A DNA stretch of 64,000 nucleotides, taken from NCBI GenBank assembly GCA_013001465.1, contig JABDMM010000039.1, positions 32,689-96,688 on the forward strand, in the 5' to 3' direction. This document shows, piece by piece, positions 9,639 through 31,582 of the stretch (position 1 is its first letter; every line of letters starts with the position of its first letter). Below the pieces are notes generated by a model. That model was not told the origin of the DNA, made no database searches, and saw only the letters and a list, made by a program, of their open reading frames with translations. The position numbers and the translations under genes are program-made. The DNA comes from Chitinophagales bacterium (lineage in GTDB: Bacteria; Bacteroidota; Bacteroidia; Chitinophagales; JABDMM01).

Positions 9639-9670
9639 CAAAGATAGATTAAATATCTTTTCTCCACAAA
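9639..9670 (-). promoter_or_regulatory. Bacteroidota sigma-A type promoter of the rplM-rpsI-rpsB-tsf operon
   Basis: Minus strand reads TTTG-N20-TATCTTTG (-33 at 9667-9670, -7 at 9639-9646). It lies 33 nt upstream of the rplM start and matches the TTTG-N19-21-TAnnTTTG consensus. Confidence 0.6.
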
Positions 9671-9733
9671 GAAAATAGTGGGAAAAGTACATTTGACTGA
9701 GGAAGAAGAATCTTTCTGAAAAAGAGATCGATC

Positions 9734-10429: not shown

Positions 10430-10498
10430 TTTTTAATTTATTTTAAGTGGATATATCAAATCCCGTGCAAATTAAATTATTCTGAAATAATGTCATCG

Positions 10499-11500: not shown

Positions 11501-11504
11501 TTTG

Positions 11505-11512
11505 CAAAATTA
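11505..11512 (-). promoter_or_regulatory. -7 box TAATTTTG only 4 nt upstream of the dusB ATG
   Basis: Minus strand reads TAATTTTGcaaaATG. Confidence 0.4.
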
Positions 11513-11623
11513 AGAGGTTTTATAAGAGTTAGGTATCATTAACGAAGCGAAATTTTAATTTAAGATAGAGACTTAACAACCTGTATGTGTATTAAGACAC
11601 TAATAGTCTTAAATATATATCAT

Positions 11624-11631
11624 TAGATTTG
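11624..11631 (+). promoter_or_regulatory. -7 box TAGATTTG upstream of the CPBP protease gene
   Basis: TAnnTTTG match 19 nt upstream of the ATG at 11651. A 7-bp palindrome ttaagac/gtcttaa lies just upstream (11592-11612). Confidence 0.45.
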
Positions 11632-11650
11632 CACGTCACCAGTTAAACCT

Positions 11651-12592: not shown

Positions 12593-12779
12593 AATATATT
12601 CCACACCGGATAGTTATTTGGCTCAAATAATTAAAGGGAACATCGAAGAACATGGGATCGAATGTGTATTAATCAATAAACAAGGTTCACCATATAACAT
12701 TCTTGGAGATGTAGAAGTCTATGTACATAAAGAAAACGTTTTGAAAGCGATCAAAATCCTAAAAGAGCATAATCAATGA
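12576..12779 (+). CDS. Small DUF2007-like protein (putative signal-transducing fold)
   Basis: 67 aa with a W..IY....Y.A.I.KG.LE..GI pattern. TTG start. Overlaps the upstream gene by 17 nt and cdsA by 4 nt (ATGA). Confidence 0.65.
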   Translation: MKDWTRIYSTPDSYLAQIIKGNIEEHGIECVLINKQGSPYNILGDVEVYVHKENVLKAIKILKEHNQ

Positions 12780-13597
12780 AAGACCTTTTACCCAGAGCGA
12801 TTTCAGGATTTGTTTTTGGTGTGATCATCATCGTCGGGGTAATATTTCATCCATACTTATTTGCAGCAGTGATCTTGATAGTTGGGACGATCAGTCTGCT
12901 TGAGTTCCAAAGGATGACATCTTCGATTTGCTACTACCCTTTAAGTTTGAAGATCCTTTATATTGTTTCTTTCCTGGCTATTTTTCTGGTCTCTTTTCTT
13001 GTGACCAATAAAGTAATTTCGAGTACTTGTTTAACTATTATACCTGCCATCCTTTTCCTTCCATTTATACTTGAGTTATACAACAAAAAGCCGGATCCGT
13101 TGATCAGACCTGCACTTGGAGTGCTTAGTACTGCTTATATCATCTTTCCTCTTTGCCTTGCAAATTTAATTGCGTTTCCGGATCTCTCAGAATTCAATGG
13201 CTATAACTTATTGGCAATTATACTTTTAACTTGGGTAACAGATATTTTTGCTTACCTGATAGGGAGTAATTTTGGTAAAAATCCACTGTTTAAAAGGGTC
13301 TCACCTAAAAAGTCTATCGAGGGTTTTATTGGAGGGGCTATATTCTGTTTAGCATCGAGTTTCTTGATCTATAAGATTTTACCTGTTGATTTTACACAGG
13401 TGGACTGGGTATTTCTCGCATTGATCGTTATTGTTTTTGGGACTATCGGAGATCTTGTAGAGTCTATGATGAAGCGAAAGTTGGAGATCAAAGACAGTGG
13501 AAGTATCATGCCGGGGCATGGTGGGTTGCTGGACAGGTTCGATGCATTATTCTTTATTTTACCATTTGCAGCCATATATATCCTTATTTTTACATAA
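12776..13597 (+). CDS. cdsA: Phosphatidate cytidylyltransferase
   Basis: SPKKSIEGFIGG and GHGGLLDRFDALFF signature, polytopic. Confidence 0.93.
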   Translation: MKDLLPRAISGFVFGVIIIVGVIFHPYLFAAVILIVGTISLLEFQRMTSSICYYPLSLKILYIVSFLAIFLVSFLVTNKVISSTCLTIIPAILFLPFILELYNKKPDPLIRPALGVLSTAYIIFPLCLANLIAFPDLSEFNGYNLLAIILLTWVTDIFAYLIGSNFGKNPLFKRVSPKKSIEGFIGGAIFCLASSFLIYKILPVDFTQVDWVFLALIVIVFGTIGDLVESMMKRKLEIKDSGSIMPGHGGLLDRFDALFFILPFAAIYILIFT

Positions 13598-13602
13598 CAA
13601 TT

Positions 13603-14988
13603 ATGAGTATGGAAATGACAGAAGCCAAGAGCAAGCAAAAAGATAATGGTACTCTTTTCAGCCAGTTTATGGAAAATGTTCGATCTAAGAATGAACATGA
13701 AGCGAAATTTATCCAGGCTGTGAGTGAAGTCGTGGAATATGTTGCTCCGTTTATACAAGAAAAAGATTATTATCAAAATGAGAGCATCCTTCAAAGGATA
13801 ATTGAGCCCGAGCGTACTGTAATTTTCAGAGTTCCCTGGATCGGGGATGATGGCAAATTTCATGTGAACAGAGGGTTCAGGGTTGAAATGAACAGTGCTA
13901 TCGGGCCATATAAAGGTGGACTTCGATTTCATCCCTCAGTAAATCTTGATGCATTGAAATTTCTTGCTTTTGAGCAGATCTTCAAAAATAGCCTTACCGG
14001 TTTACCGATGGGAGCAGGAAAAGGTGGTTCAGACTTCGATCCAAAAGGCAAAAGCGACAACGAGGTAATGCGATTTTGCCAAAGCTTTATGAGTGAGCTG
14101 TTCCGGCATATTGGTGCAAACACAGATGTACCTGCCGGTGATATTGGTGTTGGAGGCAGAGAGATCGGATATTTGTTTGGTCAATACAAAAGATTAAAAA
14201 ATGAATTTACCGGGGTATTGACCGGCAAAGGAGTTGATTGGGGTGGAAGTCTTATAAGACCTGAAGCTACTGGCTATGGTTGCGTTTATTTTGCTGATTT
14301 TATGTTGCACCGCATTGGAGACAACTTCAGAAATAAAAGTGTTGTGATATCAGGTTCAGGAAATGTTGCCCAATATGCAGCAGAAAAATCCATACACCTG
14401 GGAGCTAAAGTGATCACTTTATCGGACTCGTCAGGTTACATTCACGATCCGGATGGTGTAGATGAGGATAAACTGGATTTTGTGAAAGAATTGAAAAATG
14501 TTAAACGAGGTAGGATCAAAGAATACACCCGGAAATATAGTAATTCCAAGTATTTTGAAGGAGAAAATCCATGGTCGCAAAAATGCGATATCGCATTACC
14601 ATGTGCGATCGAGAATGAGCTAAATAAAAATGATGCTAAAGACCTGATATCGAATGGTTGTAAAATTGTTGCTGAAGGTGCTAATATGCCTGTGACACTT
14701 GAAGGAATTGAAGCATTTCTTGAGGCAAATGTAATATATGCACCTGGAAAGGCCTCGAATGCCGGTGGTGTAGCAGTTTCGGGCTTAGAAATGAGTCAGA
14801 ATTCGATGCGTGTCAACTGGTCTAAGGATGAAGTTGATAAAAGACTCCATGACATTATGTTACAAATTCACAATATCTGTGTGAAATATGGAAAAGAATC
14901 CGGAGATACTGTAAATTACGTGAAAGGAGCTAATATTGGAGGCTTCGTGCGTGTTGCCGATGCAATGATCGCACAAGGATTAGTGTGA
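13603..14988 (+). CDS. gdhA: Glutamate dehydrogenase (NADP-type)
   Basis: KGGLRFHPSVN, GAGKGGSDFDPKG and GSGNVAQYAAEK motifs. Confidence 0.96.
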   Translation: MSMEMTEAKSKQKDNGTLFSQFMENVRSKNEHEAKFIQAVSEVVEYVAPFIQEKDYYQNESILQRIIEPERTVIFRVPWIGDDGKFHVNRGFRVEMNSAIGPYKGGLRFHPSVNLDALKFLAFEQIFKNSLTGLPMGAGKGGSDFDPKGKSDNEVMRFCQSFMSELFRHIGANTDVPAGDIGVGGREIGYLFGQYKRLKNEFTGVLTGKGVDWGGSLIRPEATGYGCVYFADFMLHRIGDNFRNKSVVISGSGNVAQYAAEKSIHLGAKVITLSDSSGYIHDPDGVDEDKLDFVKELKNVKRGRIKEYTRKYSNSKYFEGENPWSQKCDIALPCAIENELNKNDAKDLISNGCKIVAEGANMPVTLEGIEAFLEANVIYAPGKASNAGGVAVSGLEMSQNSMRVNWSKDEVDKRLHDIMLQIHNICVKYGKESGDTVNYVKGANIGGFVRVADAMIAQGLV

Positions 14989-15036
14989 TTTTGAACTTTT
15001 TTGGATTATCTTCGTTTTTCAATCAGTTAAGTAATT

Positions 15037-15708
15037 GTGCGTACCTATATAATACATAAAGAAGGTCACAAAATACTACTCACCCTCGGAACGTTTATAA
15101 TTGCTGTGAACGGTGTGGTTGAGATGGTATGGCCATCACTGAACGCAGTGCAAATTTCACTGTTGTTAGCCTCTATTCTTATCTTGTTCTCTGTAGCAGC
15201 ATTTTTTAGGATCCCCAAGCGTATCTATCACTTTAATGATGATTTGATCATAGCTCCGGCAGATGGAAAAATTGTAGCTATAGAAGAAGTTGAAGAACCA
15301 GAGTATTTTAAAGACAAACGTTTATTAGTATCTATTTTCATGTCTCCTACAAACGTGCACGTAAACAGGAATCCGATTTCTGGTATTGTCAAATACATAA
15401 AGTATCATCCAGGGAAATATCTCGTTGCCTGGCATCCAAAATCTTCGGACAAGAATGAACGTAACAGCGTTGTTATCGAACACCCTGAAAGTGAATTCGA
15501 AGTTCTGGTAAGACAAATTGCCGGAAAACTTGCACGACGGATCGTACACTATTTGGAAGAAGGTGACGTTGTAAAGCAAAATTCTGAACTTGGATTTATC
15601 AAATTCGGAAGCCGTATCGATCTTTTCTTACCGATCAGCACAAAGGTGAATATTCAACTTAAGCAGAAAGTGAAAGGTGGAAAGACAGTGATAGGTAAAG
15701 TTGAATAA
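15037..15708 (+). CDS. psd: Phosphatidylserine decarboxylase proenzyme
   Basis: Short Bacteroidota-type Psd with two N-terminal TM helices. FIKFGSRIDLF corresponds to the G-S cleavage region. GTG start. Confidence 0.88.
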   Translation: MRTYIIHKEGHKILLTLGTFIIAVNGVVEMVWPSLNAVQISLLLASILILFSVAAFFRIPKRIYHFNDDLIIAPADGKIVAIEEVEEPEYFKDKRLLVSIFMSPTNVHVNRNPISGIVKYIKYHPGKYLVAWHPKSSDKNERNSVVIEHPESEFEVLVRQIAGKLARRIVHYLEEGDVVKQNSELGFIKFGSRIDLFLPISTKVNIQLKQKVKGGKTVIGKVE

Positions 15709-15747
15709 TTTGTATATTTAATAATTCTTAATAAAATTTCTCGTAAT

Positions 15748-16155
15748 ATGAAAAGAATCTCACTTGTAATAGCTATGATAGCTATGATTTCTGTTGGAAT
15801 AAATGCTCAGGAAACACAGACATTTGAACAGAAGACTGTTGAAAAGGTTGAAGTAAATACTATCGATTTTGAAAAAGCAGCAAAGGAAAAAATTGACAAC
15901 AGAAAAGAAGTTGTAAAGGACACTGAAACTAAGAAAGTTGAAGTAACAAAAGCGGTGAGTAAGCCGGACATGGAAGAAGAGCCTAAGCAGTCTTCCACAA
16001 AAGGATCTTGCTCAGATAAAGCAAAATACGCAAGCTCTAAGAAAAAAGCTGGATGCTGTGCATCAAAAAAAGCTCAGGCAGCTTGTGCATCAAAAAAGAA
16101 ATCAGCATCTACTTCTACATCTACTACTACAAAAAGTGTTGGTGTAGCTCAGTAA
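15748..16155 (+). CDS. Secreted Lys/Glu-rich low-complexity protein with C-terminal Cys/Lys cluster
   Basis: Signal peptide MKRISLVIAMIAMISVGINAQ and a C-terminal GSCSDKAKYASSKKKAGCCASKKAQAACASKKK. Followed by a strong terminator. Confidence 0.65.
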   Translation: MKRISLVIAMIAMISVGINAQETQTFEQKTVEKVEVNTIDFEKAAKEKIDNRKEVVKDTETKKVEVTKAVSKPDMEEEPKQSSTKGSCSDKAKYASSKKKAGCCASKKAQAACASKKKSASTSTSTTTKSVGVAQ

Positions 16156-16177
16156 ATCGATTTTACTTTATAAAATG

Positions 16178-16207
16178 AAGCCTCAACAATTGTTGGGGCT
16201 TTTTTTT
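16178..16207 (+). terminator. Rho-independent terminator
   Basis: Stem aagcctcaaca / tgttggggctt (one G-U pair) followed by a T8 run. Confidence 0.8.
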
Positions 16208-16208
16208 G

Positions 16209-16907
16209 TTACAGGATGTTCAGGATCTCTCCGAGTTGGCGAACTTCATAGGTTACTTCCTCTTCGTGTGGTCTGCCGCTTGAGTTAAGATAGATCTGAT
16301 CGATTCCTACTGACTTAGCCCCTAATATATCCGCTTCCAGGTTATCTCCTACCATTATAGAATCAGATGAGTTTGCCGAACTAAGATCTAAAGCGTGTTT
16401 GAATACTTTTGGATGTGGTTTATGCTTTCCTACATCTTCACTAACAATGATATTTTCGAAGTAAGGAAGAATACCGGAATGGCTGAGTTTTCTGAATTGT
16501 ATTTCCCTAAACCCATTTGTGATGATATGGAGATCATAACTTTCATTCAGATAATTCAACAGCTCCAATGCAGAAGTTATCAGGTGCTTTTGCTGCGACA
16601 TCTTGTCGATGTAGCTTAGCGATATCTGATCATAAACCTCTTCTTCAAATCTAATATTTAAGGAGGTAAACGTGTTTTTAAATCGGTTCTTTCGAAGGTT
16701 CTCTTTGCTTACCTTGTAGTTTCTATACTTTTTCCAGAATTTTCTATTGATTATGATGTAACGGTCGATGAATTCCTCAACATGAACATTGAAGGACTCA
16801 ATTTTGTGTTCATCATAAATTTCAAACAATGCTTCTCTGGTATTTAGATCATGATCCCAAAGTGTATGATCGAGATCAAAAAATATGTGCTTGTATTTAC
16901 TTGGCAT
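16209..16907 (-). CDS. HAD-superfamily hydrolase (YjjG-like nucleotidase subfamily)
   Basis: DLDHTLWD (DxDxT) motif I, ITNG, and GDNLEADILGA motif IV. I prefer the ATG at 16907, which overlaps the end of mce by 11 nt. Confidence 0.85.
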   Translation of the reverse strand: MPSKYKHIFFDLDHTLWDHDLNTREALFEIYDEHKIESFNVHVEEFIDRYIIINRKFWKKYRNYKVSKENLRKNRFKNTFTSLNIRFEEEVYDQISLSYIDKMSQQKHLITSALELLNYLNESYDLHIITNGFREIQFRKLSHSGILPYFENIIVSEDVGKHKPHPKVFKHALDLSSANSSDSIMVGDNLEADILGAKSVGIDQIYLNSSGRPHEEEVTYEVRQLGEILNIL

Positions 16908-17298
16908 CGATCTCAGCACAAAGTTCAAGTAAAACACCATTGGTGCTTTTCGGGTGAAAAAAGAATACCATTTTGTTATCAGCGCCTCTTGCAGGTTCCT
17001 TCATGATCGGTTTAAAACCTTCAGAGATCAATCTATCTATTTCAGACTGAAGATCATCGACCAGAAAAGCGATGTGATGGATACCCTCGCCTTTTTTCTC
17101 TAAATATCTTTGAATATCAGGAGTTTCGGAAGAAAACAACTCTATCTTACTTTCACCCATCATAAAGAATGAAGTCACGATATCGGAATTGGGAACTTCC
17201 TCCATTTTATAAGGCTCCCGATTCAAAAGCTTTGTAAAAAGCGCATTCGATGCTTCTAAATCCTTCACTACAATACCTAAATGTTCTATTTTGAGCAT
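16897..17298 (-). CDS. mce: Methylmalonyl-CoA epimerase (VOC/glyoxalase fold)
   Basis: 133 aa. The pattern IEHLGIVVKDLE...IHHIAFLVDDL...HPKSTNGVLLEL is typical of the family. Confidence 0.85.
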   Translation of the reverse strand: MLKIEHLGIVVKDLEASNALFTKLLNREPYKMEEVPNSDIVTSFFMMGESKIELFSSETPDIQRYLEKKGEGIHHIAFLVDDLQSEIDRLISEGFKPIMKEPARGADNKMVFFFHPKSTNGVLLELCAEIDAK

Positions 17299-17315
17299 AT
17301 TAGTAATATTTTATC

Positions 17316-17323
17316 CAAAAATA
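17316..17323 (-). promoter_or_regulatory. -7 box TATTTTTG upstream of mce
   Basis: TAnnTTTG match on the minus strand, 17 nt upstream of the ATG at 17298. Confidence 0.45.
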
Positions 17324-17362
17324 AAGCCTTTTGAAATGATAGTTAGAACTGAACAGATTCTG

Positions 17363-17370
17363 TACTTTTG
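17363..17370 (+). promoter_or_regulatory. -7 box TACTTTTG upstream of the Fe-S carrier gene
   Basis: TAnnTTTG match 25 nt upstream of the ATG at 17396. Confidence 0.45.
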
Positions 17371-17395
17371 ACGTTCACTTTTGAAAGCAGCAAAG

Positions 17396-17722
17396 ATGTT
17401 ATTTGTATCCGACACAGCAAAAGAAAGAATTCAACAGATCATTACTGATAATTCTTACGACGAGAATTACTTTATCAGAGTTTCTGTATTGGGTGGCGGT
17501 TGTTCCGGTCTGACCTATCAAATGGACTTTGACAATAAGATAAAAGAAGAAGACCAGATCTTTAACGACAAAGGGATAAAGCTAGTAACAGATCTGCGTA
17601 GTTTTCTTTACATCTGCAATACGACATTAGACTTTTCGGAAGGGTTGAATGGGAAAGGGTTTCACTTCGTCAATCCCAATGCTCAGCGCACATGTTCATG
17701 TGGCGATAGCTTTGCGATATAG
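17396..17722 (+). CDS. Iron-sulfur cluster insertion/carrier protein (HesB/IscA/ErpA family)
   Basis: GGGCSG and the C-terminal CSCGDSF cysteine triad. I prefer the ATG at 17396 over the TTG at 17381. Confidence 0.9.
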   Translation: MLFVSDTAKERIQQIITDNSYDENYFIRVSVLGGGCSGLTYQMDFDNKIKEEDQIFNDKGIKLVTDLRSFLYICNTTLDFSEGLNGKGFHFVNPNAQRTCSCGDSFAI

Positions 17723-18838
17723 TGATCTCGCAAGCTTCCATCTTCTCAGGAAAAGAATAGAACAAATCACCATTAGAATTGATAAAAGCAAATTCATCCA
17801 GTGTTTAGCAAAAAATATCGCGACTTTTGCTTCAATGATCTCGTTCTTTACCTCTGAAGTCTTGTAATTAGTCGATAAAAGCTTTTTATAATCACCGATA
17901 GCTCCTTCAATTCTGCCAAGATTTTCATAAGATTTTGCCCTGAAATAATGCGCCTGGCCTAAAGCAATGCCACTCTCGATTGCTTTACTTAAATGGAAAA
18001 CAGATTTTTCAAAATCACCCACTTCAAATTGGACAAGACCTAAATTGTAGTGCAGATCTTTATTCTCCGGATCTATTGAAATAGCTTCGTTAAACAATTC
18101 CACTGAGTTTTCTATATCTCCGGCTAAGAAGTAAGTAAGTCCTAAATTTTGTAATACGTGAACTGAAGTTCTATCAAATTCCAGATACTTGCCATAATTC
18201 TTTTCGGCCATTGATAGATCATTCCTTTCAAAATACAGATCACCCAGTGCCCAATAGACCTCTTTGAAATTTGGACTCTTTGAGAGACATTTGTTCAGAT
18301 CTAGCAAGGCATTGTTGAAGTTACCTTCATCACTATATAATCTACCTCTATCGTAGTAGTAATCGGCATTACCTTCATGCTGACCTATAGCTAAATTAAG
18401 ATCCAGTATTGCGTTTGTTCTATCGCCGGATCTTTCATAGCATTTTGCCCGCAAAGCATGCGCTTCTGTGTATCCTTCCATAAGAGCAATAGACATATTT
18501 AAGTCCTCGATAGCCTTCTCGTAATTGGCATTCTCAAAGTGAATGATCGCTCTGTTATAAAACGCATGGGGATCAAACTCGAAGAGTGAAATTGAAAGAT
18601 TCAGATCTTTGAGCGCTCCTTCCTTATCGGAAAAATTGTACTTCGCAAGAGCTCTGTTATAAAGCAAACTTGGATTATGCTGATCAGCATCGATAAGTTT
18701 ATTGAAATTATCTATTGACTGCTCATAATTAGAAGACTTCAGGCTTTTGTAAGCCTTCTTGAAAGTCTCTAGTTGATTCAAAGAAAATGCGCTGTTTGCT
18801 AAAAGCAAAACAAGCACGACTGTTATAACCCTTTTCAT
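17696..18838 (-). CDS. TPR-repeat protein with signal peptide and C-terminal TM anchor
   Basis: Multiple 34-aa TPR units (A...Y..RA....G....A..D...AI). ATGA overlap with the glyA stop. Confidence 0.8.
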
Positions 18839-22234: not shown

Positions 22235-22242
22235 TAATTTTG
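22235..22242 (+). promoter_or_regulatory. -7 box TAATTTTG 6 nt upstream of the response-regulator ATG
   Basis: Sequence reads TAATTTTGtatcagATG. Confidence 0.4.
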
Positions 22243-22248
22243 TATCAG

Positions 22249-22932
22249 ATGAATAGAACTGTCGCGGATAAAATACTATTGGTAGATGATGAGCCTGATG
22301 TGCTGGAATTCATGTGCTATAATCTAGAAAAAGAAGGTTTCCAGGTATTTACGGCAGAGAATGGTAAAGAAGGTATCAACGAAGCTATCGATAATGATCC
22401 CGATCTGATCATTCTGGATATTATGATGCCTGAAATGGATGGCATCGAAACTTGCCGTGAATTGAGAAAACTACCTCAATTCGAAAAAACCCTGATCATA
22501 TTTCTTACAGCGAGAGATGAAGACTATTCTCAAATTGCAGGTTTCGAATCTGGTGCAGATGACTATATTACAAAACCGATCAAACCCAGAGTAATGCTCC
22601 GAAGGATCCAGGCATTGTTTCGAAGAGTACAATCCGATCTACCGGGAACAATAATCAAAGTAGGGAACCTGGAAATTGATCCAGACAAGTATTTGGTCAA
22701 TATTGAAGGAAAGGGACTAACGCTTCCAAAAAAAGAGTTTCAACTGCTGAGTTTACTCGCATCTAAACCTGGTCGAGTATTCAAACGCGAGGAAATCCTT
22801 TCAAAAGTTTGGGGTAACGAAACGATCGTTGGGGACAGAACTATCGATGTACATATTCGAAAATTGAGAGAGAAAATTGGCCAGGAGTATATAAAAACGA
22901 TTAAAGGAATTGGTTATAAATTTAATCAATGA
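22249..22932 (+). CDS. OmpR/PhoB-family response regulator
   Basis: Receiver domain (LLVDDEPD, DLIILDIMMP, KP) and a winged-helix C-terminus (GDRTIDVHIRKLREKI, GIGYKF). Confidence 0.92.
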   Translation: MNRTVADKILLVDDEPDVLEFMCYNLEKEGFQVFTAENGKEGINEAIDNDPDLIILDIMMPEMDGIETCRELRKLPQFEKTLIIFLTARDEDYSQIAGFESGADDYITKPIKPRVMLRRIQALFRRVQSDLPGTIIKVGNLEIDPDKYLVNIEGKGLTLPKKEFQLLSLLASKPGRVFKREEILSKVWGNETIVGDRTIDVHIRKLREKIGQEYIKTIKGIGYKFNQ

Positions 22933-23969
22933 AAAACCCCACAAAATGGGACATTGCGATATACGTTTCCTTGCTTACCGCTTTGATCGTACTTATCAGT
23001 CTTTTTGGATTTAAGGCCTATTTCGAGATCCCTACTATTTTTCTAATCACTATTCCGCTGATCACCTTTGTTTCATCCTATTTTCTTGTTGTATACATGG
23101 TCGAGCGTTTTGTTTATCGGAAGATAAAGATCCTTTATAAAACAATACACAATTTAAAGACAGGGAAATCGCTTAAAAAGCAATTTGCTCAGGAAGCGAG
23201 TATGTTGGAAAGTGTCGAACAGGAGGTTCTGGATTATACCAAATCAAAATCCGATGAAATCCTCGAGCTTAAAAAAATGGAACAATACAGGAAAGAGTTT
23301 CTTGGAAATGTATCGCATGAGCTAAAAACTCCAATTTTTAACATTCAAGGTTATATTGATACACTGCTCAATGGAGGCCTTGAGGATGAGAAGATCAATA
23401 AAGACTATTTGCTGAAAGCTTCATATAATGCAGACCGACTATCAAACATCGTTGAAGAACTTATGCTTATTTCACAATATGAATCGGGAGCTTTAGAGCT
23501 CAACTTTAGTGAATTCGATATTAGAAAACTGATCGTTGACCAGTTTGATATTTTTGAGATGCAAGCAGATCTCAAGGACATTAAACTAAAATTTAAAAAA
23601 GGAACCACGAAGCCCGTTAGTGTATATGCAGATAAAAAAAGGGTAACGCAGGTATTGAATAACTTGCTTAGCAATTCCATCAAATACGGTAACGAAGGTG
23701 GTACAACTAGTATTGGAATATACAATATGGAAGAAAATATTCTGGTAGAGGTAAACGACAACGGAAATGGCATTCCCAAGGAGCACCTTCAAAGACTATT
23801 TGAACGATTTTACCGTGTAGATTCAAGCCGATCAAGAGAACTTGGTGGTACGGGTCTTGGACTTTCTATCGTGAAACACATCATTGAAGCACACCAGCAA
23901 ACTATCAGTGTAAGATCGACTGTAGGCAAGGGAACCACTTTTGCATTCAGCCTTAAAAAGGCGCAGTAA
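22929..23969 (+). CDS. Sensor histidine kinase with two closely spaced TM helices (intramembrane-sensing type)
   Basis: HisKA SHELKTP, N box LLSNSIKY, G boxes DNGNGIP and GGTGLGLSIV. ATGA overlap with the response regulator gene. Confidence 0.92.
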   Translation: MKNPTKWDIAIYVSLLTALIVLISLFGFKAYFEIPTIFLITIPLITFVSSYFLVVYMVERFVYRKIKILYKTIHNLKTGKSLKKQFAQEASMLESVEQEVLDYTKSKSDEILELKKMEQYRKEFLGNVSHELKTPIFNIQGYIDTLLNGGLEDEKINKDYLLKASYNADRLSNIVEELMLISQYESGALELNFSEFDIRKLIVDQFDIFEMQADLKDIKLKFKKGTTKPVSVYADKKRVTQVLNNLLSNSIKYGNEGGTTSIGIYNMEENILVEVNDNGNGIPKEHLQRLFERFYRVDSSRSRELGGTGLGLSIVKHIIEAHQQTISVRSTVGKGTTFAFSLKKAQ

Positions 23970-23998
23970 GTTGGCTCGATTTTAGCATTATCTTTATC

Positions 23999-24772
23999 AT
24001 GAGGGTTCTTCTACTTTTCTTATCTCTATCTCTTTTATATTCTTGTAAACCAGAAACTGAGTATGCAAATTTGATCCAATCGCATATTACGGAATCTGTT
24101 TCACATAACGAGTGGGATAAGCTCACGAAAAAGAATGTGAAATCCTCTGGTGAAGTTGATTATCTATCTTTTATAGAAGACTCAATTCGATTTAAATCTT
24201 ACTTGGATCTCTTATCAGTGAATCCACCTTCGGAAGGGTGGTCAAATAATGAAAAGCTTGTTTATTGGATAAATGCATATAATGCTTTCACTGTCCAAAT
24301 CGTTTTGAAGCACTATCCGATCGAAAGTATAACCGATATCAAAACATTTCACATTCCCTTAGTCAATACCGTTTGGCATGATGAATTCATACCTATCGGT
24401 GATCAAAAAATAAGTCTGAATCATATAGAACACGGTATTCTGCGAAAAGAGTTTAATGATCCAAGGATCCACTTTGCGATCAACTGTGCCAGCCTATCTT
24501 GTCCTAAATTAAGAAACGAAGCCTATCGTTCAGAACAAATTGATAAACAATTAGATGATCAGGCTCATGCCTTCTTTAATGATACTGGGAAAAACGAGTT
24601 CTCGGTTGACAGAGTTGAAGTAAGTCGGATCTTCCAATGGTTTCGTAAGGATTTCACCACAGAATCGACACTAATAGCATATCTAAATCGGTATTCTCCC
24701 GTAGAAATAAGGGAAGACGCTACCATATCGTACAAGAAGTACGATTGGAGTTTGAATGAAGCTCGAAAGTAG
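23999..24772 (+). CDS. DUF547-domain lipoprotein
   Basis: Lipobox LLYSC. DUF547 core (WINAYNAFT, HFAINCASLSCPKL, FQWF.KDF). Confidence 0.8.
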   Translation: MRVLLLFLSLSLLYSCKPETEYANLIQSHITESVSHNEWDKLTKKNVKSSGEVDYLSFIEDSIRFKSYLDLLSVNPPSEGWSNNEKLVYWINAYNAFTVQIVLKHYPIESITDIKTFHIPLVNTVWHDEFIPIGDQKISLNHIEHGILRKEFNDPRIHFAINCASLSCPKLRNEAYRSEQIDKQLDDQAHAFFNDTGKNEFSVDRVEVSRIFQWFRKDFTTESTLIAYLNRYSPVEIREDATISYKKYDWSLNEARK

Positions 24773-24784
24773 TGTCTATGCGAA

Positions 24785-27580
24785 ATGAAAACCATCTATT
24801 TAACACTTCTTTTTCTCCTGTTCTCAGGTTTATCAGTTGAGTCGGCCGATATATATGTCGAGTTAACGACTGAAAAGTCCCGAATTCATAAGAGCTATTC
24901 TCATGCTGACCAATACTGGTATGATAACATGGAATATCTCCAAAGTTCTATCAAACCATACGATCTATATCGTCTTAATTTCTTGCTACGCTCTTTTAAC
25001 ACTGAGGAGTTGAATGAGTTATATCAAGATGGCTTTATGGATCATCTCATTTTTTTCACAGCAGGAATTCTCAAATATGAAGCGGAAGAAGGCAAGATCA
25101 TAGACTTCCTCACTGAACATCCAAAGCTTGCTCTATACACCTTCCCGTTTTACTCAGATCAACCATATGCTTTAAAAGCAATAATCAAGTTGTGCAATTT
25201 TATTCCTCAGGAGGTCTTGAAAAAAAGTGAACTGTGGATTACATCGGAAATTGCACAGGTTGTAATTGATAAGCTAGTTGCAACATCTCCAAAGTTACTC
25301 GCGAGGTATATGAATGATGAGAAGTTTTCAAACCTTGTGAAGTCTTCTGAAAATGAACTTACCAATACGTTTAGGGAGTTCTACGAACTTTCAGGGTCGC
25401 TTTCAAATACATATCTTTTGCTGGATCAGTCAATGTCGCCAAACAATTTATCATTTAAGGAAATTTATCAAATCTCATCGAATACAGATGCATTGAGCTC
25501 AAAGTTGGTCGATAATTTTTATAATGGAAGCTATTCTCAGCACTCCATTTCAGAGAATCTAAAAAACAGATCAATCACGATCCTTGAAAAAACAGATACG
25601 CTTTCCTGGGATAGATATTTTGTTTCCTATCTATTGGTAAATGAAAATCTTTCTTTGGAGGAGAATATGTATCATCTGAATGTGTTAAGAAACAGCAACC
25701 GGCAGTTTAAAGTCAATTTCCAGAATCCATTTATGCTCTCTGCTCTTTTCTCAACCATGGATTTAATGGGTCAGTTTGGTTATTATAATCTGTTCAATCA
25801 AATTATATCCTCCAGGTATAGGAATGAACTGGAAAGTAAGTACCTCAACTGTAGAAACCGAAACAGAATACCATATGAAGTCTTCGACCGAAGCTTTAGT
25901 TCTGGCAGCAGCTCCAATGGACTTCGTTTTAAAGAACGGGATCGATTTATTCAACATCTGGGTCGTGATATAGATGCAGCCATGAAAACTTTGAAATACA
26001 TAAGACAGGATCCTATTGCCAGACAATTTTTGGATGAGGTTTGTTCTAAAAGCGCCTATCATATCCTTAGTAATTTCGAAGTTTTCTCGAGAGAACCCTA
26101 CGCGCTGAGGTTTTTGGAAAGAGCTGTACTCGAAGATCCAGCTGCTGCAAAAGAATTCTTATCATCGGATAATTCAGAGGTTCTCCCATATTTGAAGCGG
26201 TGCAGAAATCCTAAAGTTGCTAAGTTGATCCAGCTACATGATAAGTTTGGAATGCTAAGCAATTCATATCTGCTAGCCGATATACTTCTCAAAAATGAAA
26301 TTGATGCAAACGATGCGCATACCACCGGCTTTTACAAAGACCTCCTTTTTAAAAAACTGGTAGAGATCAGACCTGTTGCTACCTTTGGCAAGCAATCTAT
26401 CGACAAACATCTCAGTAATTATGTTTTAAGTAAGATCAGGGAATTGAATGCCCGCATAGATCTACCCGATGAAAAAGAAAGTAACATCAGTAAATTCTCT
26501 TCAGCCGAATTGTATTTCTATATGATTTACGGAGAAGAAGAACTCCTAAGCAATACATTCGATCAATTCTATTCCGGATTTAGTGCTACGCTTTCTCAGA
26601 ACATAGATGAATTTAAAATCCCTGTTAAGAACTTTAGGATCGAGCGCTTTCTGAAAATTTGTGCGCACCACAACGTTTTAAGCGACTTTCTTGATCATTT
26701 CAATACTGCTGAAAGAAAAGTCATGATCGATCACATCTTCGTGCAAGATCTCGACTTGGAGAAATTTGTAGAGATAGCAGAATTGATCGCAGCAATGGAT
26801 GACAGTAAATTCAAAGTAGAGTTGCAGAAAAAGATCGAATCGCAAATGGAGTTGTCTTCCAAAGCAGAAAAGGCGAATCAGTATATAATGCTAACTATTC
26901 TACAGTCTTTGCAAAAAGACACACTAGCAAATAATACCCCGGCATTTAGTATAATCAAATACAGCGACCTGGCTGAGAATGGCACCGTTAGTGGTTTGCA
27001 ATTTTTCTATAACGATTCAGACGGAAAACTATCATATGATGAATTCATCAAAATGTATCGTTCAGACTACAACTGGAAAATAGAAGACCATGATCATTTC
27101 ACTAGAGTATATAGTGTGTCTGGAAAACAAGTTGAGATATTGAGCAATAAGCCATCAAGCGTGGCTGATGGTTATTTTGCTATTCAGGAATATTTAAAAA
27201 GTAAGGATCGAAAGACCAAAATATTCATTCACAGAGGCTATAGTTATCATGTTGAAAAAACGATAAACCATATAGAGCAAAGTGCAAAACTAGTATTTCT
27301 GGGATCTTGCGGTGGATATTATAAAGTAGATGAAGTCATGCAAAAATCTCCGGAGGCTCATGTAATATCAACAAGACAGATTGCAACCCACAACCTGAAC
27401 AATCCTCTAATTTATAAGATCACCGAAGAGCTAAGAAAAAATGAAGAGATAGATTGGAAAGAGTTCTGGAAAGATGCCCAATCTGAATTAAAAAGTAATC
27501 GGATTAACGATTACATCGCCCCACATAAAAATTTCAGTCACCGCCTCATAAATTCTTACTTCGATGTACTGGGTATATAG
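24785..27580 (+). CDS. Large secreted hypothetical protein (931 aa), paralog A of a tandem pair
   Basis: Signal peptide, a mostly helical N-region with an internal duplication, and a C-terminal alpha/beta-like domain carrying HRGYS...GSCGGY. I recognise no known family. Confidence 0.8.
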   Translation: MKTIYLTLLFLLFSGLSVESADIYVELTTEKSRIHKSYSHADQYWYDNMEYLQSSIKPYDLYRLNFLLRSFNTEELNELYQDGFMDHLIFFTAGILKYEAEEGKIIDFLTEHPKLALYTFPFYSDQPYALKAIIKLCNFIPQEVLKKSELWITSEIAQVVIDKLVATSPKLLARYMNDEKFSNLVKSSENELTNTFREFYELSGSLSNTYLLLDQSMSPNNLSFKEIYQISSNTDALSSKLVDNFYNGSYSQHSISENLKNRSITILEKTDTLSWDRYFVSYLLVNENLSLEENMYHLNVLRNSNRQFKVNFQNPFMLSALFSTMDLMGQFGYYNLFNQIISSRYRNELESKYLNCRNRNRIPYEVFDRSFSSGSSSNGLRFKERDRFIQHLGRDIDAAMKTLKYIRQDPIARQFLDEVCSKSAYHILSNFEVFSREPYALRFLERAVLEDPAAAKEFLSSDNSEVLPYLKRCRNPKVAKLIQLHDKFGMLSNSYLLADILLKNEIDANDAHTTGFYKDLLFKKLVEIRPVATFGKQSIDKHLSNYVLSKIRELNARIDLPDEKESNISKFSSAELYFYMIYGEEELLSNTFDQFYSGFSATLSQNIDEFKIPVKNFRIERFLKICAHHNVLSDFLDHFNTAERKVMIDHIFVQDLDLEKFVEIAELIAAMDDSKFKVELQKKIESQMELSSKAEKANQYIMLTILQSLQKDTLANNTPAFSIIKYSDLAENGTVSGLQFFYNDSDGKLSYDEFIKMYRSDYNWKIEDHDHFTRVYSVSGKQVEILSNKPSSVADGYFAIQEYLKSKDRKTKIFIHRGYSYHVEKTINHIEQSAKLVFLGSCGGYYKVDEVMQKSPEAHVISTRQIATHNLNNPLIYKITEELRKNEEIDWKEFWKDAQSELKSNRINDYIAPHKNFSHRLINSYFDVLGI

Positions 27581-29582
27581 TGCACTGCTTATTGGAGCTA
27601 TCCATCTAATTACATTTCCTGTTCCAGCTCAAAGCAACAATTCTGACGATAAAAATTATGAAACTTTGGAGTCCTATGTAAAAGAAATAACTGAGCTCCA
27701 AAGCGGTACGAACTCCAACGTATCTATCAATAATATCAAGCAATTACTTCTTCAGAATAAAAGTGAAGCATTCTTTAAAGCGATGATGGCTTATGAAATT
27801 TTATCAGACATGAAGACTGCAGAAAAAGATCAGACAACTTTCTCTTCTAATCATCTGATCTTCCTCGAAGATTATCTCATACAGCTTAATAAAAGCACGC
27901 TTGATCAATATTTAGAAGAGAATCCATTGCTGGCAATTCATAACTTCAGGTACCTTTCTGCTTATAGTGGTATTGAAAGTTTTCTCGTAAACTATATCTC
28001 TGTATATCCTCTAGATATCTTGAATATTTACCCTGAAATTCAAAAAAGAAATTACAATCTCAAGATCCTGGACAAACTTTGCAGTGTTATTCCGTCTATT
28101 GTTAAAGACTACCTGGGCTCCAATCATATTATCAAACGTGACTTTATGAAGTTGTCTTCTGAAAATGCCAGAGTTTTAAAACAGATCTACCTAAACGATC
28201 CTAATGACAACAAGCTATATGCATTTGCCGAAGAGATAAAAAATAGTAGTTTGACAATTAAGGAAGCGCGATCTATTTGCGATGATAATGGAAGATATTT
28301 CCAGGAGATGGTTAAATCCTTCCTATCAAATGAACATTATATCAGGCACTCTCTAAATGCACTACTCAAAGAAGAAAGTCTAAAGTTGATGAGAGCTCTC
28401 AATGATGATCATATGAACACCAATTTTGAGAGCAGATTCAAACCCGTTTCACACCTGACTTCTCAAGAGCTTTATGTTCTGCTTATCCAGTCTGAAGAGG
28501 AAGTTTTCACTTCTACTTTTAATGGTCTTTATGAAATTTTAACTGCGAAAATTCAGGGAGACGCTACTGCATTTCTATCATCAGTCAACTATAGAGAATT
28601 TAGAAGTTTCTTGAGATTACTGGCATCCTTCGGGAAACTGGAAAACTGGCTTGAGCTGATAAATGACAGTGATCGTTCAGAGCTGCTGAATAGATTTGTA
28701 AGCTCTCTTGAGACTTACCGAACACTAGACGAAGCGATCACAGTGGCAGATGCCATAGGAAGCATTAGTGATGAAATATTAAAAGCAGATCTGAACAGAG
28801 AGATTCAAGATCAGTTTTCTCGCTGCAGACATCATAAACAAGAGCGTGGCATAGCAATTTACAGGGTTCTAAAGAGCTTAGCTTCAATAGATGATCTAAG
28901 TTTATTTCAGGATCAATATGCGATCACTTCAATAGATAAGATCGAAAGAAGTGAGCTGTTCAATTCAAATGGGAAACACATCCAACAGCATTACTTTTAT
29001 GATGATGACGATGGCAGAGAATCCTTTGCATCCTTTATAGCACAATTCTCTTCACAGTGGTTGATATCAGATAAAGGCACATACATCATCATCTCACCGG
29101 TAAGGAATCCTGATATATTGATGTTTGTCAACAAGCCAGAATTCGAAACTGACGGGCATCAAGACATTCGGGAATATCTTATGATAAATAAAATGTCTCC
29201 CCAGGTTATTGTTCATCGAGGGCATAGCTTTTATTCAGACAAGACCATCAGGCACATTGATGCTTCGACTAAGATAGCGATCATTGGCTCTTGTGGCAGT
29301 TACCATAGCATCTACAAAGTTTTAGAGAAATCTGCGGAAATACATGTGATCAGCTCTAAGCAGATCGCAAGTCAGCATGTTAATAATCCTTTGTTATTGT
29401 TATTGGCAAAAGCTATTATGACGGAAAGAGATCTTGAGTGGCCGATATTCTGGGAAGCTTTGAAAACCAATTTAAGTCAGAACCGCTATGCTTCAGAAAA
29501 ATTCGTTGATTATGTTCCTCCACACAAGAATCTGGGAATACTGTTTGTGAGGGCATACGATAAAGTACGGACAGGTCAGTAA
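27564..29582 (+). CDS. Large secreted hypothetical protein (672 aa), paralog B of a tandem pair
   Basis: Hydrophobic N-terminus. Its ATG overlaps the end of paralog A by 17 nt. It shares the helical module, the ELY...SEEE...TSTF motif and the C-terminal HRGHS...GSCGSY domain with paralog A. Confidence 0.8.
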   Translation: MYWVYSALLIGAIHLITFPVPAQSNNSDDKNYETLESYVKEITELQSGTNSNVSINNIKQLLLQNKSEAFFKAMMAYEILSDMKTAEKDQTTFSSNHLIFLEDYLIQLNKSTLDQYLEENPLLAIHNFRYLSAYSGIESFLVNYISVYPLDILNIYPEIQKRNYNLKILDKLCSVIPSIVKDYLGSNHIIKRDFMKLSSENARVLKQIYLNDPNDNKLYAFAEEIKNSSLTIKEARSICDDNGRYFQEMVKSFLSNEHYIRHSLNALLKEESLKLMRALNDDHMNTNFESRFKPVSHLTSQELYVLLIQSEEEVFTSTFNGLYEILTAKIQGDATAFLSSVNYREFRSFLRLLASFGKLENWLELINDSDRSELLNRFVSSLETYRTLDEAITVADAIGSISDEILKADLNREIQDQFSRCRHHKQERGIAIYRVLKSLASIDDLSLFQDQYAITSIDKIERSELFNSNGKHIQQHYFYDDDDGRESFASFIAQFSSQWLISDKGTYIIISPVRNPDILMFVNKPEFETDGHQDIREYLMINKMSPQVIVHRGHSFYSDKTIRHIDASTKIAIIGSCGSYHSIYKVLEKSAEIHVISSKQIASQHVNNPLLLLLAKAIMTERDLEWPIFWEALKTNLSQNRYASEKFVDYVPPHKNLGILFVRAYDKVRTGQ

Positions 29583-31582
29583 TTCCAGAGTTCGATCAAT
29601 TTTTCTCTAAATCTCTTAATTGGTAAATAATCGCTCTCGAGGTTTGCAGCAAATGGCACCGGAGTATCAAGGCTTGCAACTCTCATTATCGGCGCATCGA
29701 GATCTTCGAATAATTCTTGAGAGATCTTTGCTGAAATTTCGGCACCGATACCGCCGGTCATATTGTCTTCGTGAAAAACGATCAGCTTCCCAGTCTTTTT
29801 AACAGAATCCATTATGGTTTCCCAATCCATTGGGATAAGTGTTTGCAAGTCGATCACATCTGCAGAAACTTCAGTCTCTTCATCGAGGATCTTTTGAGCC
29901 CAATGCACTCCAAATCCATACGTCACTATCGTGAGATCGTCGCCTTCGCGAGCTAATCGTGCTTTACCGATCTCAAGCGTATAATAATCATCAGGAACTT
30001 CGGCAGCAAGACTTCGATATAAAGCCTTATGCTCGAAAAACATGACAGGATTTGGATCCTCTATTGCTGCACATAACAAGCCTTTCGCAGCAGCAGGAGT
30101 TGATGGGTAAACGATTTTCAGTCCGGGCACATGGAAAAACCATGATTCATTGGATTGAGAATGAAAAGGCCCTGCTCCTACACCGGCACCGGTTGGCATT
30201 CGGATCACGACATCGGCATTGACATTCCAACGGTAATGGATCTTTGCCAATACATTTACAATAGCATTGAATCCGGTAGATACAAAATCTGCAAACTGCA
30301 TTTCTACCATGGATTTATAACCCTTCATCGAAAGACCAAGCGCTGCGCTAAGAATTCCAGATTCACATAGAGGTGTATTTCGCACTCTTTCCTTACCGAA
30401 TTCATTCAGGAAACCGTCTGTAATTTTGAAAACTCCTCCGTATTCTGCAATATCCTGACCCATAAGAACCAGATTATCGTACTTTGTCATACTCTGACGC
30501 AAACCATCAGAGATCGCATCAACTAAGCGCTTTTCTGAAGTTGAATTTGAAACAGGAGGGATCACAATTTGATCGTGGTTTTTGTAAACATCAGCAAGCT
30601 CACGATCAGTATCTGCAGCAATGTCTTCATCCGCGTAAGCTTCAGCCAAAGCTTCTTCAATTTCCTTATGAATCTCTTTTTCGAGATGTGTTGCATCCTC
30701 TTGTTTGATGACCCCTTCAGCAATAAGGTATTCTTGATAGTTTATTACAGGATCTTTACTGCGCCAGTATTCCATAAGTTGAGCAGGAACATACTTTGTA
30801 CCCGAAGCTTCTTCATGACCTCGCATTCTGAATGTTCTGCATTCCAATAAAACCGGTTTAGGATCCTTTCGCATTCTTGATAAGATCTCTGAAACCGTAT
30901 TATATACCTCGAGAATATTATTACCATCAATGGAATGAGCTTCCATACCATAACCCTGGCCGCGATCAGCCAGGCTCGAACAACGATACTGCTCGTTGAC
31001 GGGAGTTGACAATCCGTATCCGTTATTTTCGATTATAAATAAAACAGGTAAGTCCCAAACCGAAGCGATATTTAATGCTTCATGAGTATCACCCTGACTA
31101 CTTCCACCGTCACCGCAAAAAGCAACAGCTACTTTTTCTTCTTTATTTAGTTTATTTCCTAAGCCGATGCCGTTGGCAATACACATTTGAGGACCGAGAT
31201 GCGACACCATGCCGCTGATATGATAATCCAGTGTTCCAAAATGAAAAGATCGGTCTCGACCTTTAGTAAAACCACCTTCTTTACCCTGAAATTGCTTGAA
31301 TAGATTGGGAAGAGGCACATTTCGACTGGTAAAGACGCCAAGATTCCTGTGCAGTGGGAAGATAAATTCATCGGGATCGAGTGCTTTAGTAACACCCACA
31401 GCAATAGCTTCCTGTCCGATACCCGCGAACCATTTGGAAACCTTACCTTGTCTTAAAAGGTTCAGCATTTTATTCTCGACCAGACGTGGTTTTAAAATTG
31501 CTTTATGAAGGTCAATCAGTATCTGATCAGAAAGATCTCCTTTTTCGAATTTGAAACCGGTAATTTCCAACTTCTCTATCAT
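29576..31582 (-). CDS. Fused alpha/beta E1 component of a 2-oxoacid (branched-chain type) dehydrogenase
   Basis: TPP motif GDGGSSQGDTHEALN...IIENNGYG in the N-half and a transketolase-like pyrimidine-binding and C-terminal domain in the C-half. This single-polypeptide form is typical of Bacteroidota. Confidence 0.9.
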   Translation of the reverse strand: MIEKLEITGFKFEKGDLSDQILIDLHKAILKPRLVENKMLNLLRQGKVSKWFAGIGQEAIAVGVTKALDPDEFIFPLHRNLGVFTSRNVPLPNLFKQFQGKEGGFTKGRDRSFHFGTLDYHISGMVSHLGPQMCIANGIGLGNKLNKEEKVAVAFCGDGGSSQGDTHEALNIASVWDLPVLFIIENNGYGLSTPVNEQYRCSSLADRGQGYGMEAHSIDGNNILEVYNTVSEILSRMRKDPKPVLLECRTFRMRGHEEASGTKYVPAQLMEYWRSKDPVINYQEYLIAEGVIKQEDATHLEKEIHKEIEEALAEAYADEDIAADTDRELADVYKNHDQIVIPPVSNSTSEKRLVDAISDGLRQSMTKYDNLVLMGQDIAEYGGVFKITDGFLNEFGKERVRNTPLCESGILSAALGLSMKGYKSMVEMQFADFVSTGFNAIVNVLAKIHYRWNVNADVVIRMPTGAGVGAGPFHSQSNESWFFHVPGLKIVYPSTPAAAKGLLCAAIEDPNPVMFFEHKALYRSLAAEVPDDYYTLEIGKARLAREGDDLTIVTYGFGVHWAQKILDEETEVSADVIDLQTLIPMDWETIMDSVKKTGKLIVFHEDNMTGGIGAEISAKISQELFEDLDAPIMRVASLDTPVPFAANLESDYLPIKRFREKLIELWNY

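Follow-up and report, generated by a model that had tools for sequence, protein, structure and literature searches.

The closest functional analogy to the proteins described here may be with clan CD cysteine peptidases that have helical N-terminal regions, in which an alpha-solenoid is followed by a C-terminal catalytic domain. In clan CD more generally (separase, CHAT, caspases, gingipains and legumain) a His and then a Cys each follow a hydrophobic strand, and these strands are consecutive in a three-layer alpha/beta sandwich. For gene organization the comparable systems are BceRS-BceAB and LiaFSR, which share with the present locus genes for extracytoplasmic proteins, probably co-regulated, beside those for an OmpR-type regulator and a kinase with almost no external loop. 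The present study analyzes two overlapping open reading frames, ORF1 and ORF2, at positions 24785-29582 on the forward strand of a 64-kb stretch of DNA from a Chitinophagales metagenome-assembled genome (contig JABDMM010000039.1; the window hereafter means this whole stretch). We assign their products to no named family but to a new, never-described one whose general kind is familiar, that of exported alpha/beta enzymes with a thiol-centered site encoded beside a two-component system.

The explanation that we tentatively prefer, with a probability a little short of even, is that ORF1 and ORF2 encode two exported proteins that act on the cell envelope as cysteine-dependent hydrolases or transferases. 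Both proteins would cross the inner membrane by means of a Sec signal peptide and stay extracytoplasmic. The C-terminal domain would be the enzyme, with Cys577 of ORF2 (Cys842 of ORF1) as nucleophile and H551 and/or H554 as base, and D481/D483, K599 and N607 would orient the base, stabilize the transition state or bind substrate. Binding of the substrate or of a partner would fall to the helical region, of which the long form has two copies, and the two paralogues would act together. The chemistry could be that of a cysteine hydrolase or transferase (peptidase-, amidase- or transpeptidase-like) on an envelope polymer or protein; we infer the catalysis by Cys577, the reaction type and the substrate alike.

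The gene pair, its paralogy and its predicted export

A first-pass annotation, made from the sequence alone, had described a tandem, translationally coupled pair of large secreted paralogues in which the second gene starts before the first has ended. Both genes are found at the positions that it gave, and the ORF2 ATG is indeed within the final ORF1 codons (...GAT GTA CTG GGT ATA TAG).

24785..27580, forward strand: ORF1, the long paralogue, 931 amino acids (aa) from an ATG start (NNC94584.1, HKN92_03410; GenBank name "hypothetical protein")
27564..29582, forward strand: ORF2, the short paralogue, 672 aa from an ATG start (HKN92_03415; the GenBank protein P0001 is identical)
27564..27580, forward strand: overlap of the ORF1 stop and ORF2 start, 17 nucleotides (nt), consistent with translational coupling
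24785..24847, forward strand: predicted Sec signal peptide of ORF1, about aa 1-21, MKTIYLTLLFLLFSGLSVES/A, with a hydrophobic 12-mer score of 2.18 and no lipobox
27564..27629, forward strand: predicted signal peptide of ORF2, about aa 1-22, MYWVYSALLIGAIHLITFPVPA/QS, without a basic n-region

The main alignment between the two proteins joins ORF1 376-925 to ORF2 94-665 (BLASTP E=2e-54, 26% identity over 582 columns), a similarity far beyond chance, and they are true paralogues, as had been proposed. The three shared blocks listed by the first-pass annotation are all borne out. Two of them fall inside the main alignment, namely the C-terminal domain and the central motif (ORF1 574-599, ORF2 301-326). 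In the third, the N-proximal module, the pairing is shifted by about one helical unit relative to that proposed. A second BLASTP alignment matches ORF1 98-160 with ORF2 134-205 (E=4e-4), and ORF1 resembles itself (101-261 vs 384-545, E=7e-6). At a related locus, L001, residues 107-379 of the long protein match ORF2 104-376 (E=4e-10), and its residues 106-410 match 118-424 of the short protein of the same locus (E=6e-10). The best explanation of the N-proximal shared module is that the helical module has been duplicated within the long protein.

A scan of GTDB species genomes, with a 5-sequence alignment as query, gave at least 587 confirmed loci for a single peptide pattern, and the best 80 of these were examined. 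L001 has its own orthologues of both genes in the same order with a 4-nt overlap; the ORF1 orthologue has 1043 aa and matches over its full length (E=3e-97), and the ORF2 orthologue, P0002, has 699 aa (E=1.6e-85). A long gene (about 950-1140 aa) followed by a short one (about 690-730 aa) was found in 47 of the 80 loci, with a gap of -26 to +11 nt in 41 of the 47 pairs, and the remaining loci had a single gene of about 690-733 aa or were cut by contig ends. Because there are hundreds of homologues and the pair is conserved, we judge that both genes are clearly real.

Export was assessed with a hydropathy scan, and the ORF1 cleavage site was placed by the -3/-1 rule. The 12-residue Kyte-Doolittle maxima at the N-termini are 2.2 for ORF1 and 2.25 for ORF2; in both proteins the h-region is clear and the c-region plausible (VES/A and VPA/Q). 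A comparable hydrophobic N-terminal segment occurs in 44 of the 47 short orthologues, and a lipobox-like motif in a few orthologues (3 long, 6 short). Residues 1-130 of both ORF1 and ORF2 are free of Cys, so that neither has a lipobox, and neither protein matched a C-terminal sorting domain of the type IX secretion system (T9SS; Por_Secre_tail or TIGR04183 type) in Pfam or NCBIfam; in the AlphaFold2 model the C-terminus of ORF2 is taken up by the alpha/beta domain. These scans agree with the earlier description of signal-like N-termini with neither lipobox nor T9SS domain. The word "secreted" holds to the extent that the hydrophobic N-termini point to Sec export, probably into the periplasm; with the T9SS domain absent, nothing beyond Sec export is supported.

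The C-terminal domain and its predicted active site

The first-pass annotation had called both proteins mostly helical until the last 200 or so residues, and the AlphaFold2 model of ORF2 has this form, with helices at about 110-455 and an alpha/beta domain at 455-672. The segments of the two proteins and the codons of the main candidate residues are as follows.

24965..25909, forward strand: extra N-terminal helical module of ORF1, about aa 61-375, an apparent duplicate of the helical module after it
25910..26929, forward strand: helical core of ORF1, about aa 376-715, common to ORF2 and contained in the main BLASTP and family alignment
26930..27577, forward strand: C-terminal alpha/beta domain of ORF1, aa 716-931, with D744-x-D746-G, H816-R-G-Y819-S and G-S-C842-G-G
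27891..28925, forward strand: all-helical region of ORF2, about aa 110-454 (AlphaFold2, predicted local distance difference test, pLDDT, mostly 70-89)
28926..29579, forward strand: C-terminal alpha/beta domain of ORF2, aa 455-672, the defining domain of the family
29214..29225, forward strand: codons of H551-R552-G553-H554 at the C-terminal end of strand 5, 96-99% conserved, a predicted general base or ligand loop
29292..29294, forward strand: codon of Cys577, the predicted nucleophile, in a G-S-C-G-G turn between strand 6 and helix 4, present in 153/153 sequences

The full ORF2 model had a pLDDT of 70.5, with low confidence in the first 105 residues (signal peptide and linker). The C-terminal domain of about 215 aa, modeled alone from a 43-sequence alignment, had a pLDDT of 94.5 and a predicted template modeling score of 0.91, with all five models at 93.8 or above. 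Its elements follow the order b1-a1-b2-b3-b4-a2-b5-a3-b6-a4-b7-a5 and then three helices. In the model the domain is a three-layer alpha/beta sandwich, a generic class, without an identifiable solved relative.

Conservation was counted over 153 sequences and is given in ORF2 numbering. Five residues are conserved at 100% (C577, G578, N607, Y650 and P653), nine at 98% or more (F478, D481, D483, R552, G553, G575, W626, W630 and N656) and six at 96-97% (G484, S487, H551, H554, S555 and S576); K599 is conserved at 90% and is otherwise mostly Arg. Cys577 is kept in 47/47 long and 47/47 short paralogues and in Azospirillum, whose homologues are the most divergent and keep the core residue set. In the model, D481-x-D483-G follows strand 1 with D483 at the start of helix 1, H551-R-G-H554-S ends strand 5, S/T-K599 follows strand 7, and N607 is on helix 5 three residues from its start. 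From the AlphaFold2 secondary structure, D481, H551, C577 and K599 are each on the C-terminal edge of the sheet or immediately beyond it; in doubly wound alpha/beta folds this edge usually holds the active site, and the conserved residues may therefore cluster spatially as an active site. The helical region of ORF2 is itself conserved in its membrane-distal, C-terminal half (over about 150 sequences: N280 at 99% and E313 at 98%, with H283, R291-F292, Y304, T316-S317, G321, R347 and Y433 in addition), and the central motif of the first-pass annotation falls in this half; the ORF1 helical core contains the motif EEE-x-[FL]-[TS]-S/N-TF-[ND]-G, aa 583-593.

Both members of the pair would appear to be functional. 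Core residues were kept by both classes in 47/47 pairs, with H554 and K599 (K or R) relaxed in the long class, and the classes differ at positions 556-558 (F-H-T in long vs Y-Y-A in short), 580-581 (F-Y vs Y-H), 598 (T vs S) and 608 (D vs N). This is the pattern expected of two functional, subfunctionalized paralogues, as opposed to an enzyme and a dead copy. Because the full residue set is kept and class-specific positions beside the motifs differ, the two proteins probably cooperate, either by forming a heteromer or by acting on two related substrates.

No confident match of ORF1 or ORF2 to a characterized family was found in Pfam, NCBIfam, PADLOC, PDB or Foldseek. Pfam-A 2025, NCBIfam 20.0 and PADLOC 2.0 gave only sub-threshold noise for both proteins (E>=0.06), phmmer against all PDB sequences gave no match, and a profile of the C-terminal domain against PDB gave nothing at E<0.3. 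Neither 43 diverse C-terminal domains nor 11 further full-length relatives had any Pfam domain in common. The Foldseek comparison of the domain model with PDB returned no entry at E<1e-3, the best matches being the P-loop GTPases NFeoB, EngA, Arl1 and Sar1 (E>=4e-3, template modeling (TM) score 0.16-0.44), and against BFVD it returned only two uncharacterized viral proteins (E 2e-3 to 7e-3, TM score about 0.4). For the full-length ORF2 model there were weak alpha-solenoid matches (ARM/HEAT-type) to the helical part (E>=0.016). Caspase-fold, amidotransferase, isochorismatase and alpha/beta-hydrolase structures were not among the Foldseek matches of the domain.

Several known folds share some part of this pattern. 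Ras-like/TRAFAC P-loop GTPases have a similar succession of strands and helices (b1-a1-antiparallel hairpin-b-a-b-a-b-a) with functional loops at the C-terminal ends of strands, but in the present family the Cys/His/Asp set replaces the nucleotide-binding loops. The Walker A (GxxxxGK[ST]), NKxD and CX5R motifs were all absent from ORF1 and ORF2 in a regular-expression scan, which rules out a GTPase or Cys-phosphatase. Isochorismatase-like hydrolases (PncA, N-carbamoylsarcosine amidase) are generally known to have a Rossmann-like sandwich with an Asp after strand 1, a Lys and a Cys, and nicotinamidases have in addition a nearby His/Asp metal site, an inventory of conserved residue types similar to that of our family; however, the order here is Asp...His...Cys...Lys as opposed to Asp...His...Lys...Cys, and neither Pfam nor Foldseek gave a match. 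Enzymes of the class I glutamine amidotransferase or alpha/beta-hydrolase type have a small-x-nucleophile-x-small elbow, with His and acid after the nucleophile in sequence. The G-S-C-G-G strand-turn-helix is present in our proteins, but the conserved His residues precede the Cys, and there was again no Pfam or Foldseek match. A candidate late His, H654, is only 71% conserved, and because the Azospirillum proteins have Asp there yet keep the core set it is not regarded as essential. Readings of individual motifs as class I amidotransferase, SGNH, HAD or receiver domain were set aside, given a misfit in residue order and no Pfam or Foldseek match.

The resemblance to clan CD is closer. The sequence has VIV-H551 and IAIIGS-C577, a His before a Cys, each following a hydrophobic strand block (VIVH-RG ... 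IAIIGSC), with the two strands consecutive in the alpha/beta sandwich, although this feature alone is not diagnostic; and a helical-repeat N-terminus precedes a candidate catalytic domain at the extreme C-terminus. It could be that the family is a very divergent clan CD (caspase/gingipain/legumain/separase/CHAT) cysteine peptidase with an H551 and C577 dyad and a solenoid serving as it does in separase and CHAT. This is quite improbable. Peptidase_C14, C13, C11, C25, C50 and CHAT were unmatched in 43 domains and 13 full-length members even at E<=1, with no profile match to C80 either, and caspase-fold structures were absent from the top 50 Foldseek matches of the domain. With the full-length model as query, separase came no higher than rank 43 (E=0.16), a match for which the helical part accounts. 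The His-Cys spacing is 26 residues, and by comparison with what is generally known of the caspase fold the three-strand meander after helix 1 is foreign to it; the family has H-R-G where clan CD has H-G, and nothing in clan CD corresponds to its invariant D-x-D-G loop, K599 and N607. Because profile similarity and fold recognition both failed, membership in clan CD is not accepted.

The same residues could instead belong to an enzyme that depends on a metal (a zinc amidase, deacetylase or phosphoesterase, for instance), with H551, H554 (and H557 in many members), C577 and D481/D483 as ligands. The H-x-x-H(-x-x-H), the invariant Cys and the D-x-D-G loop are all conserved, and the candidate ligands are on neighboring loops of the same sheet edge. 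A weak EF-hand-like match in ORF1 (residues 744-759, the D-x-D-G..S..F stretch; E=0.06, below threshold) hints at cation binding, although an EF-hand as such was rejected, since Tyr occupies the first ligand position and there is no conserved Glu at position 12. Yet H554 is Leu or Tyr in eight long paralogues that are otherwise intact, H557 is Tyr in one third of members, and metallohydrolases were absent from the Pfam, PDB and Foldseek results. The G-S-C-G-G strand-turn-helix would also, from general knowledge, be more typical of a nucleophile than of a ligand. We consider a metal enzyme unlikely, though it is the first of the alternatives to be kept in mind.

The position of the domain could itself suggest a sorting or anchoring signal, as it ends within 0-15 residues of the protein C-terminus in most of 152 members. 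A 215-aa alpha/beta domain with invariant residues of catalytic type argues otherwise, as does the internal position of the domain in giant proteins of Omnitrophota and several fusions, and the envelope types of Bacteroidota, Azospirillum and the candidate phyla radiation (CPR) differ and would not be expected to share one sorting machinery. Such a role is extremely improbable.

Several observations weigh against the preferred explanation of an exported pair of cysteine-dependent enzymes. Neither homology nor experiment ties the C-terminal domain to any reaction. The presumed proximity of Cys577, His551 and Asp481/483 is read from topology, and the His/His/Cys/Asp set is equally compatible with a metal site. 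H554 is replaced in ORF1 (Tyr819 in place of the second His) and in 7 of 47 long paralogues (Leu; His in 40). Cysteine hydrolases were absent from the Foldseek matches, the best of which, P-loop GTPases, had TM scores of 0.27-0.37 when normalized by query length. Linkage to a two-component system is found in only about half of the pair loci and in one order, and part of it may be inherited synteny. Finally, a cluster of paralogues at locus L003 lacks signal peptides, so that not all family members are Sec-exported.

Family size and distribution

The earlier view that these proteins have no recognizable family is right insofar as the family is undescribed; it is no orphan, though, with at least 1032 clusters at 50% identity in at least four phyla. 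An exhaustive profile search over 1.84 billion representatives (clusters at 50% identity) gave 1032 family representatives at E<=1e-3, 820 at E<=1e-10 and 639 at E<=1e-30, overturning an impression of an orphan or rare family left by word-indexed searches, which had found 3 relatives in total and no match for ORF1 as query. The search with ORF1 was empty because ORF1 (24785-27577, 931 aa) is filed under a 54-aa cluster representative, a database artefact by which word-indexed search misses ORF1 itself and which could conceal other proteins likewise. A phage collection contained no homologue of the family, and a literature search on its motifs found nothing relevant. Every named member is a "hypothetical protein" in GenBank or RefSeq, those of Azospirillum likewise under RefSeq/PGAP.

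Members occur in Bacteroidota (mainly Chitinophagales), CPR/Patescibacteria, Omnitrophota and Azospirillum. Nearly all of the best 80 loci were from Chitinophagales or other Bacteroidota, including the cultured Chitinophaga skermanii, C. eiseniae and Chitinophaga sp. RCC_12. CPR-type members, of which the named examples are Candidatus Falkowbacteria and Paceibacterota, have a charged N-terminal region and then a hydrophobic stretch that may be read as an N-terminal membrane anchor. Candidatus Omnitrophota have giant multi-domain members of up to 7391 aa, and Azospirillum megaplasmids carry stand-alone homologues with 24-30% identity whose N-termini are also signal-like and which would be exported. 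N-terminal regions vary across members and the C-terminal domain is constant.

It is possible that proteins so distributed are exported effectors or toxins that target other cells and owe their toxicity to the C-terminal domain, which would explain why they occur in the episymbiotic or predatory CPR and Omnitrophota and in clusters of several copies. The family is prominent in these groups and includes giant surface-type proteins (to 7391 aa), its N-terminal regions are variable ahead of a constant C-terminal domain, and L003 has three domain-bearing paralogues and a fourth that shares the N-terminal region only, with small ORFs interspersed. Polymorphic toxins, however, are generally known to vary in the C-terminal domain, which is here the constant one. 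The Chitinophagales proteins lack a T9SS or other outer-membrane secretion signal, no conserved or recurrent small immunity-like gene followed the pair in the 80 loci, and there was no PADLOC match, so that a toxin role seems very improbable.

If the preferred explanation of an exported pair of cysteine-dependent enzymes is true, there would be an undescribed enzyme family, with more than 1000 sequence clusters, working outside the cytoplasmic membrane of bacteria from four widely differing groups, among them the ultra-small CPR and the Omnitrophota, whose surface biology is almost unknown. Going further, the domain could found a new clan of extracytoplasmic cysteine-dependent enzymes, unrelated to any solved structure, and, in Chitinophagales, act as an obligate subfunctionalized pair under an intramembrane-sensing two-component system to remodel or survey an envelope polymer, an extension that we consider doubtful. 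The family offers a catalytic hypothesis testable via one invariant Cys, in a compact domain of about 215 aa that has a confident model and no structural neighbor. The paralogue pair suits studies of subfunctionalization, and the cultured hosts Chitinophaga and Azospirillum allow genetics. At the least a Pfam/InterPro entry is warranted, which would link thousands of "hypothetical proteins". Uncharacterized conserved families are, however, common.

Some individual members merit description. At the metagenomic locus L003 (JGI 3300033182 contig, 1230-17906) four large paralogues of 1371, 1437, 1016 and 1046 aa lie between rpoB and serS with small ORFs (43, 62 and 83 aa) interspersed; three of the four have the C-terminal domain, and what the 1371-aa protein shares is confined to the N-terminal 225-460 aa. 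The CPR-type protein P0003 has, at residues of about 90-400 and ahead of the conserved core, some ten regular 30-aa tandem repeats with consensus F[LI]xNAxYFKDIPGLNLxxEI, also present in P0005, P0063 and P0106. That the N-proximal module of ORF1 and ORF2 might be a unit of this repeat was considered and rejected, as a profile of the ten P0003 repeats misses both proteins. Single fusions were seen in P0046 (2578 aa, Omnitrophota), with a downstream ELFV dehydrogenase and GNAT, and in P0078 (1045 aa), with Methyltransf_28 (E=1.9e-32); as single cases on short contigs with nothing consistent between them, and possibly gene-calling artefacts, they were not taken as a clue to function. L048 (CAZYYU010000032.1), a contig labeled "uncultured Gammaproteobacteria bacterium", has a pair of the usual Chitinophagales type preceded by the kinase gene, and this label is probably a binning or labeling error rather than a real occurrence.

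The two-component genes and other neighbors

ORF1 and ORF2 are the last of five same-strand genes at 22240-29582 with gaps of -4, 29, 12 and -17 nt. The three genes ahead of them are as follows.

22240..22932, forward strand: OmpR-family response regulator (Pfam Response_reg 1e-29, Trans_reg_C 4e-25), first gene of the packed run
22929..23969, forward strand: intramembrane-sensing histidine kinase (Pfam HisKA 1.2e-12, HATPase_c 3.3e-31), overlapping the regulator by 4 nt
23999..24772, forward strand: DUF547 lipoprotein (Pfam DUF547 1.9e-30), with lipobox LLYS-C and N-terminus MRVLLLFLSLSLLYSC, ending 12 nt before ORF1

A transmembrane scan of the kinase found two helices (aa 9-27 and 37-55) ahead of HisKA and HATPase, and because the external loop between them has only 9 residues the kinase is assigned to the intramembrane-sensing type. 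An orthologue of the regulator (71-73% identity) was upstream on the same strand in about 21 of the 42 pair loci with enough flank, and a kinase orthologue was directly upstream of the long paralogue in 12 of the 42, an undercount since only ATG starts were used in calling ORFs. In four single-copy Chitinophaga loci, orthologues of regulator and kinase (56% and 44-47% identity) are upstream on the opposite strand, the divergent regulator lying at a distance of 380 nt in three loci and 1066 nt in the fourth (L073). Because the linkage occurs in two gene orientations it suggests regulation rather than mere synteny, and the OmpR-type regulator and kinase probably control expression of ORF1 and ORF2.

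Intramembrane-sensing kinases classically depend on accessory proteins (BceS on BceAB, LiaS on LiaF), and an alternative explanation could be that the ORF1 and ORF2 proteins are not enzymes but serve in the periplasm as binding proteins, scaffolds or accessory sensors, relaying an envelope signal to the neighboring kinase, itself without a sensor domain. The 9-residue external loop, of the type established as needing such partners, the linkage of a two-component system to a family gene in two orientations, and the large alpha-solenoid region, typical of binding proteins, are all consistent with this. A set of Cys, His, Asp, Asn, Lys and Arg residues that stays invariant at strand ends across four phyla is rather the pattern of a catalytic site, and most CPR, Omnitrophota and Azospirillum members, as well as many in Bacteroidota, have no such kinase nearby; we therefore give a purely sensory role a small chance. 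The comparison with BceRS-BceAB and LiaFSR has limits: the proteins are not homologous to BceAB or LiaF, the locus is from another phylum (Bacteroidota), and only part of the family shows the linkage. No neighbors were common among the CPR, Omnitrophota and Azospirillum members.

The DUF547 lipoprotein, which has a conserved-looking NCASLSCP Cys pair, was considered as a conserved partner and rejected: because no counterpart was present in the 80 related loci, the gene is an insertion specific to the operon of this lineage. In 14 Chitinophagales loci (L031 1785-2282, reverse strand, and 13 others) the gene divergently upstream of the long paralogue, at a median distance of 273 nt, encodes a lipoprotein of about 165 aa that matches nothing in Pfam; it has no counterpart in the window. 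Transfer RNA and Rfam scans found no tRNA genes and no Rfam families at gathering threshold in the whole 64 kb, across which GC content is even at 36-42%, with no sign of the locus being a foreign island. On the far side of the pair no terminator-like site was found between ORF2 and the next gene, which is convergent (29576-31582, reverse strand), encodes a 668-aa fused E1 alpha/beta 2-oxo-acid dehydrogenase and overlaps the end of ORF2 by 7 nt (29576-29582).

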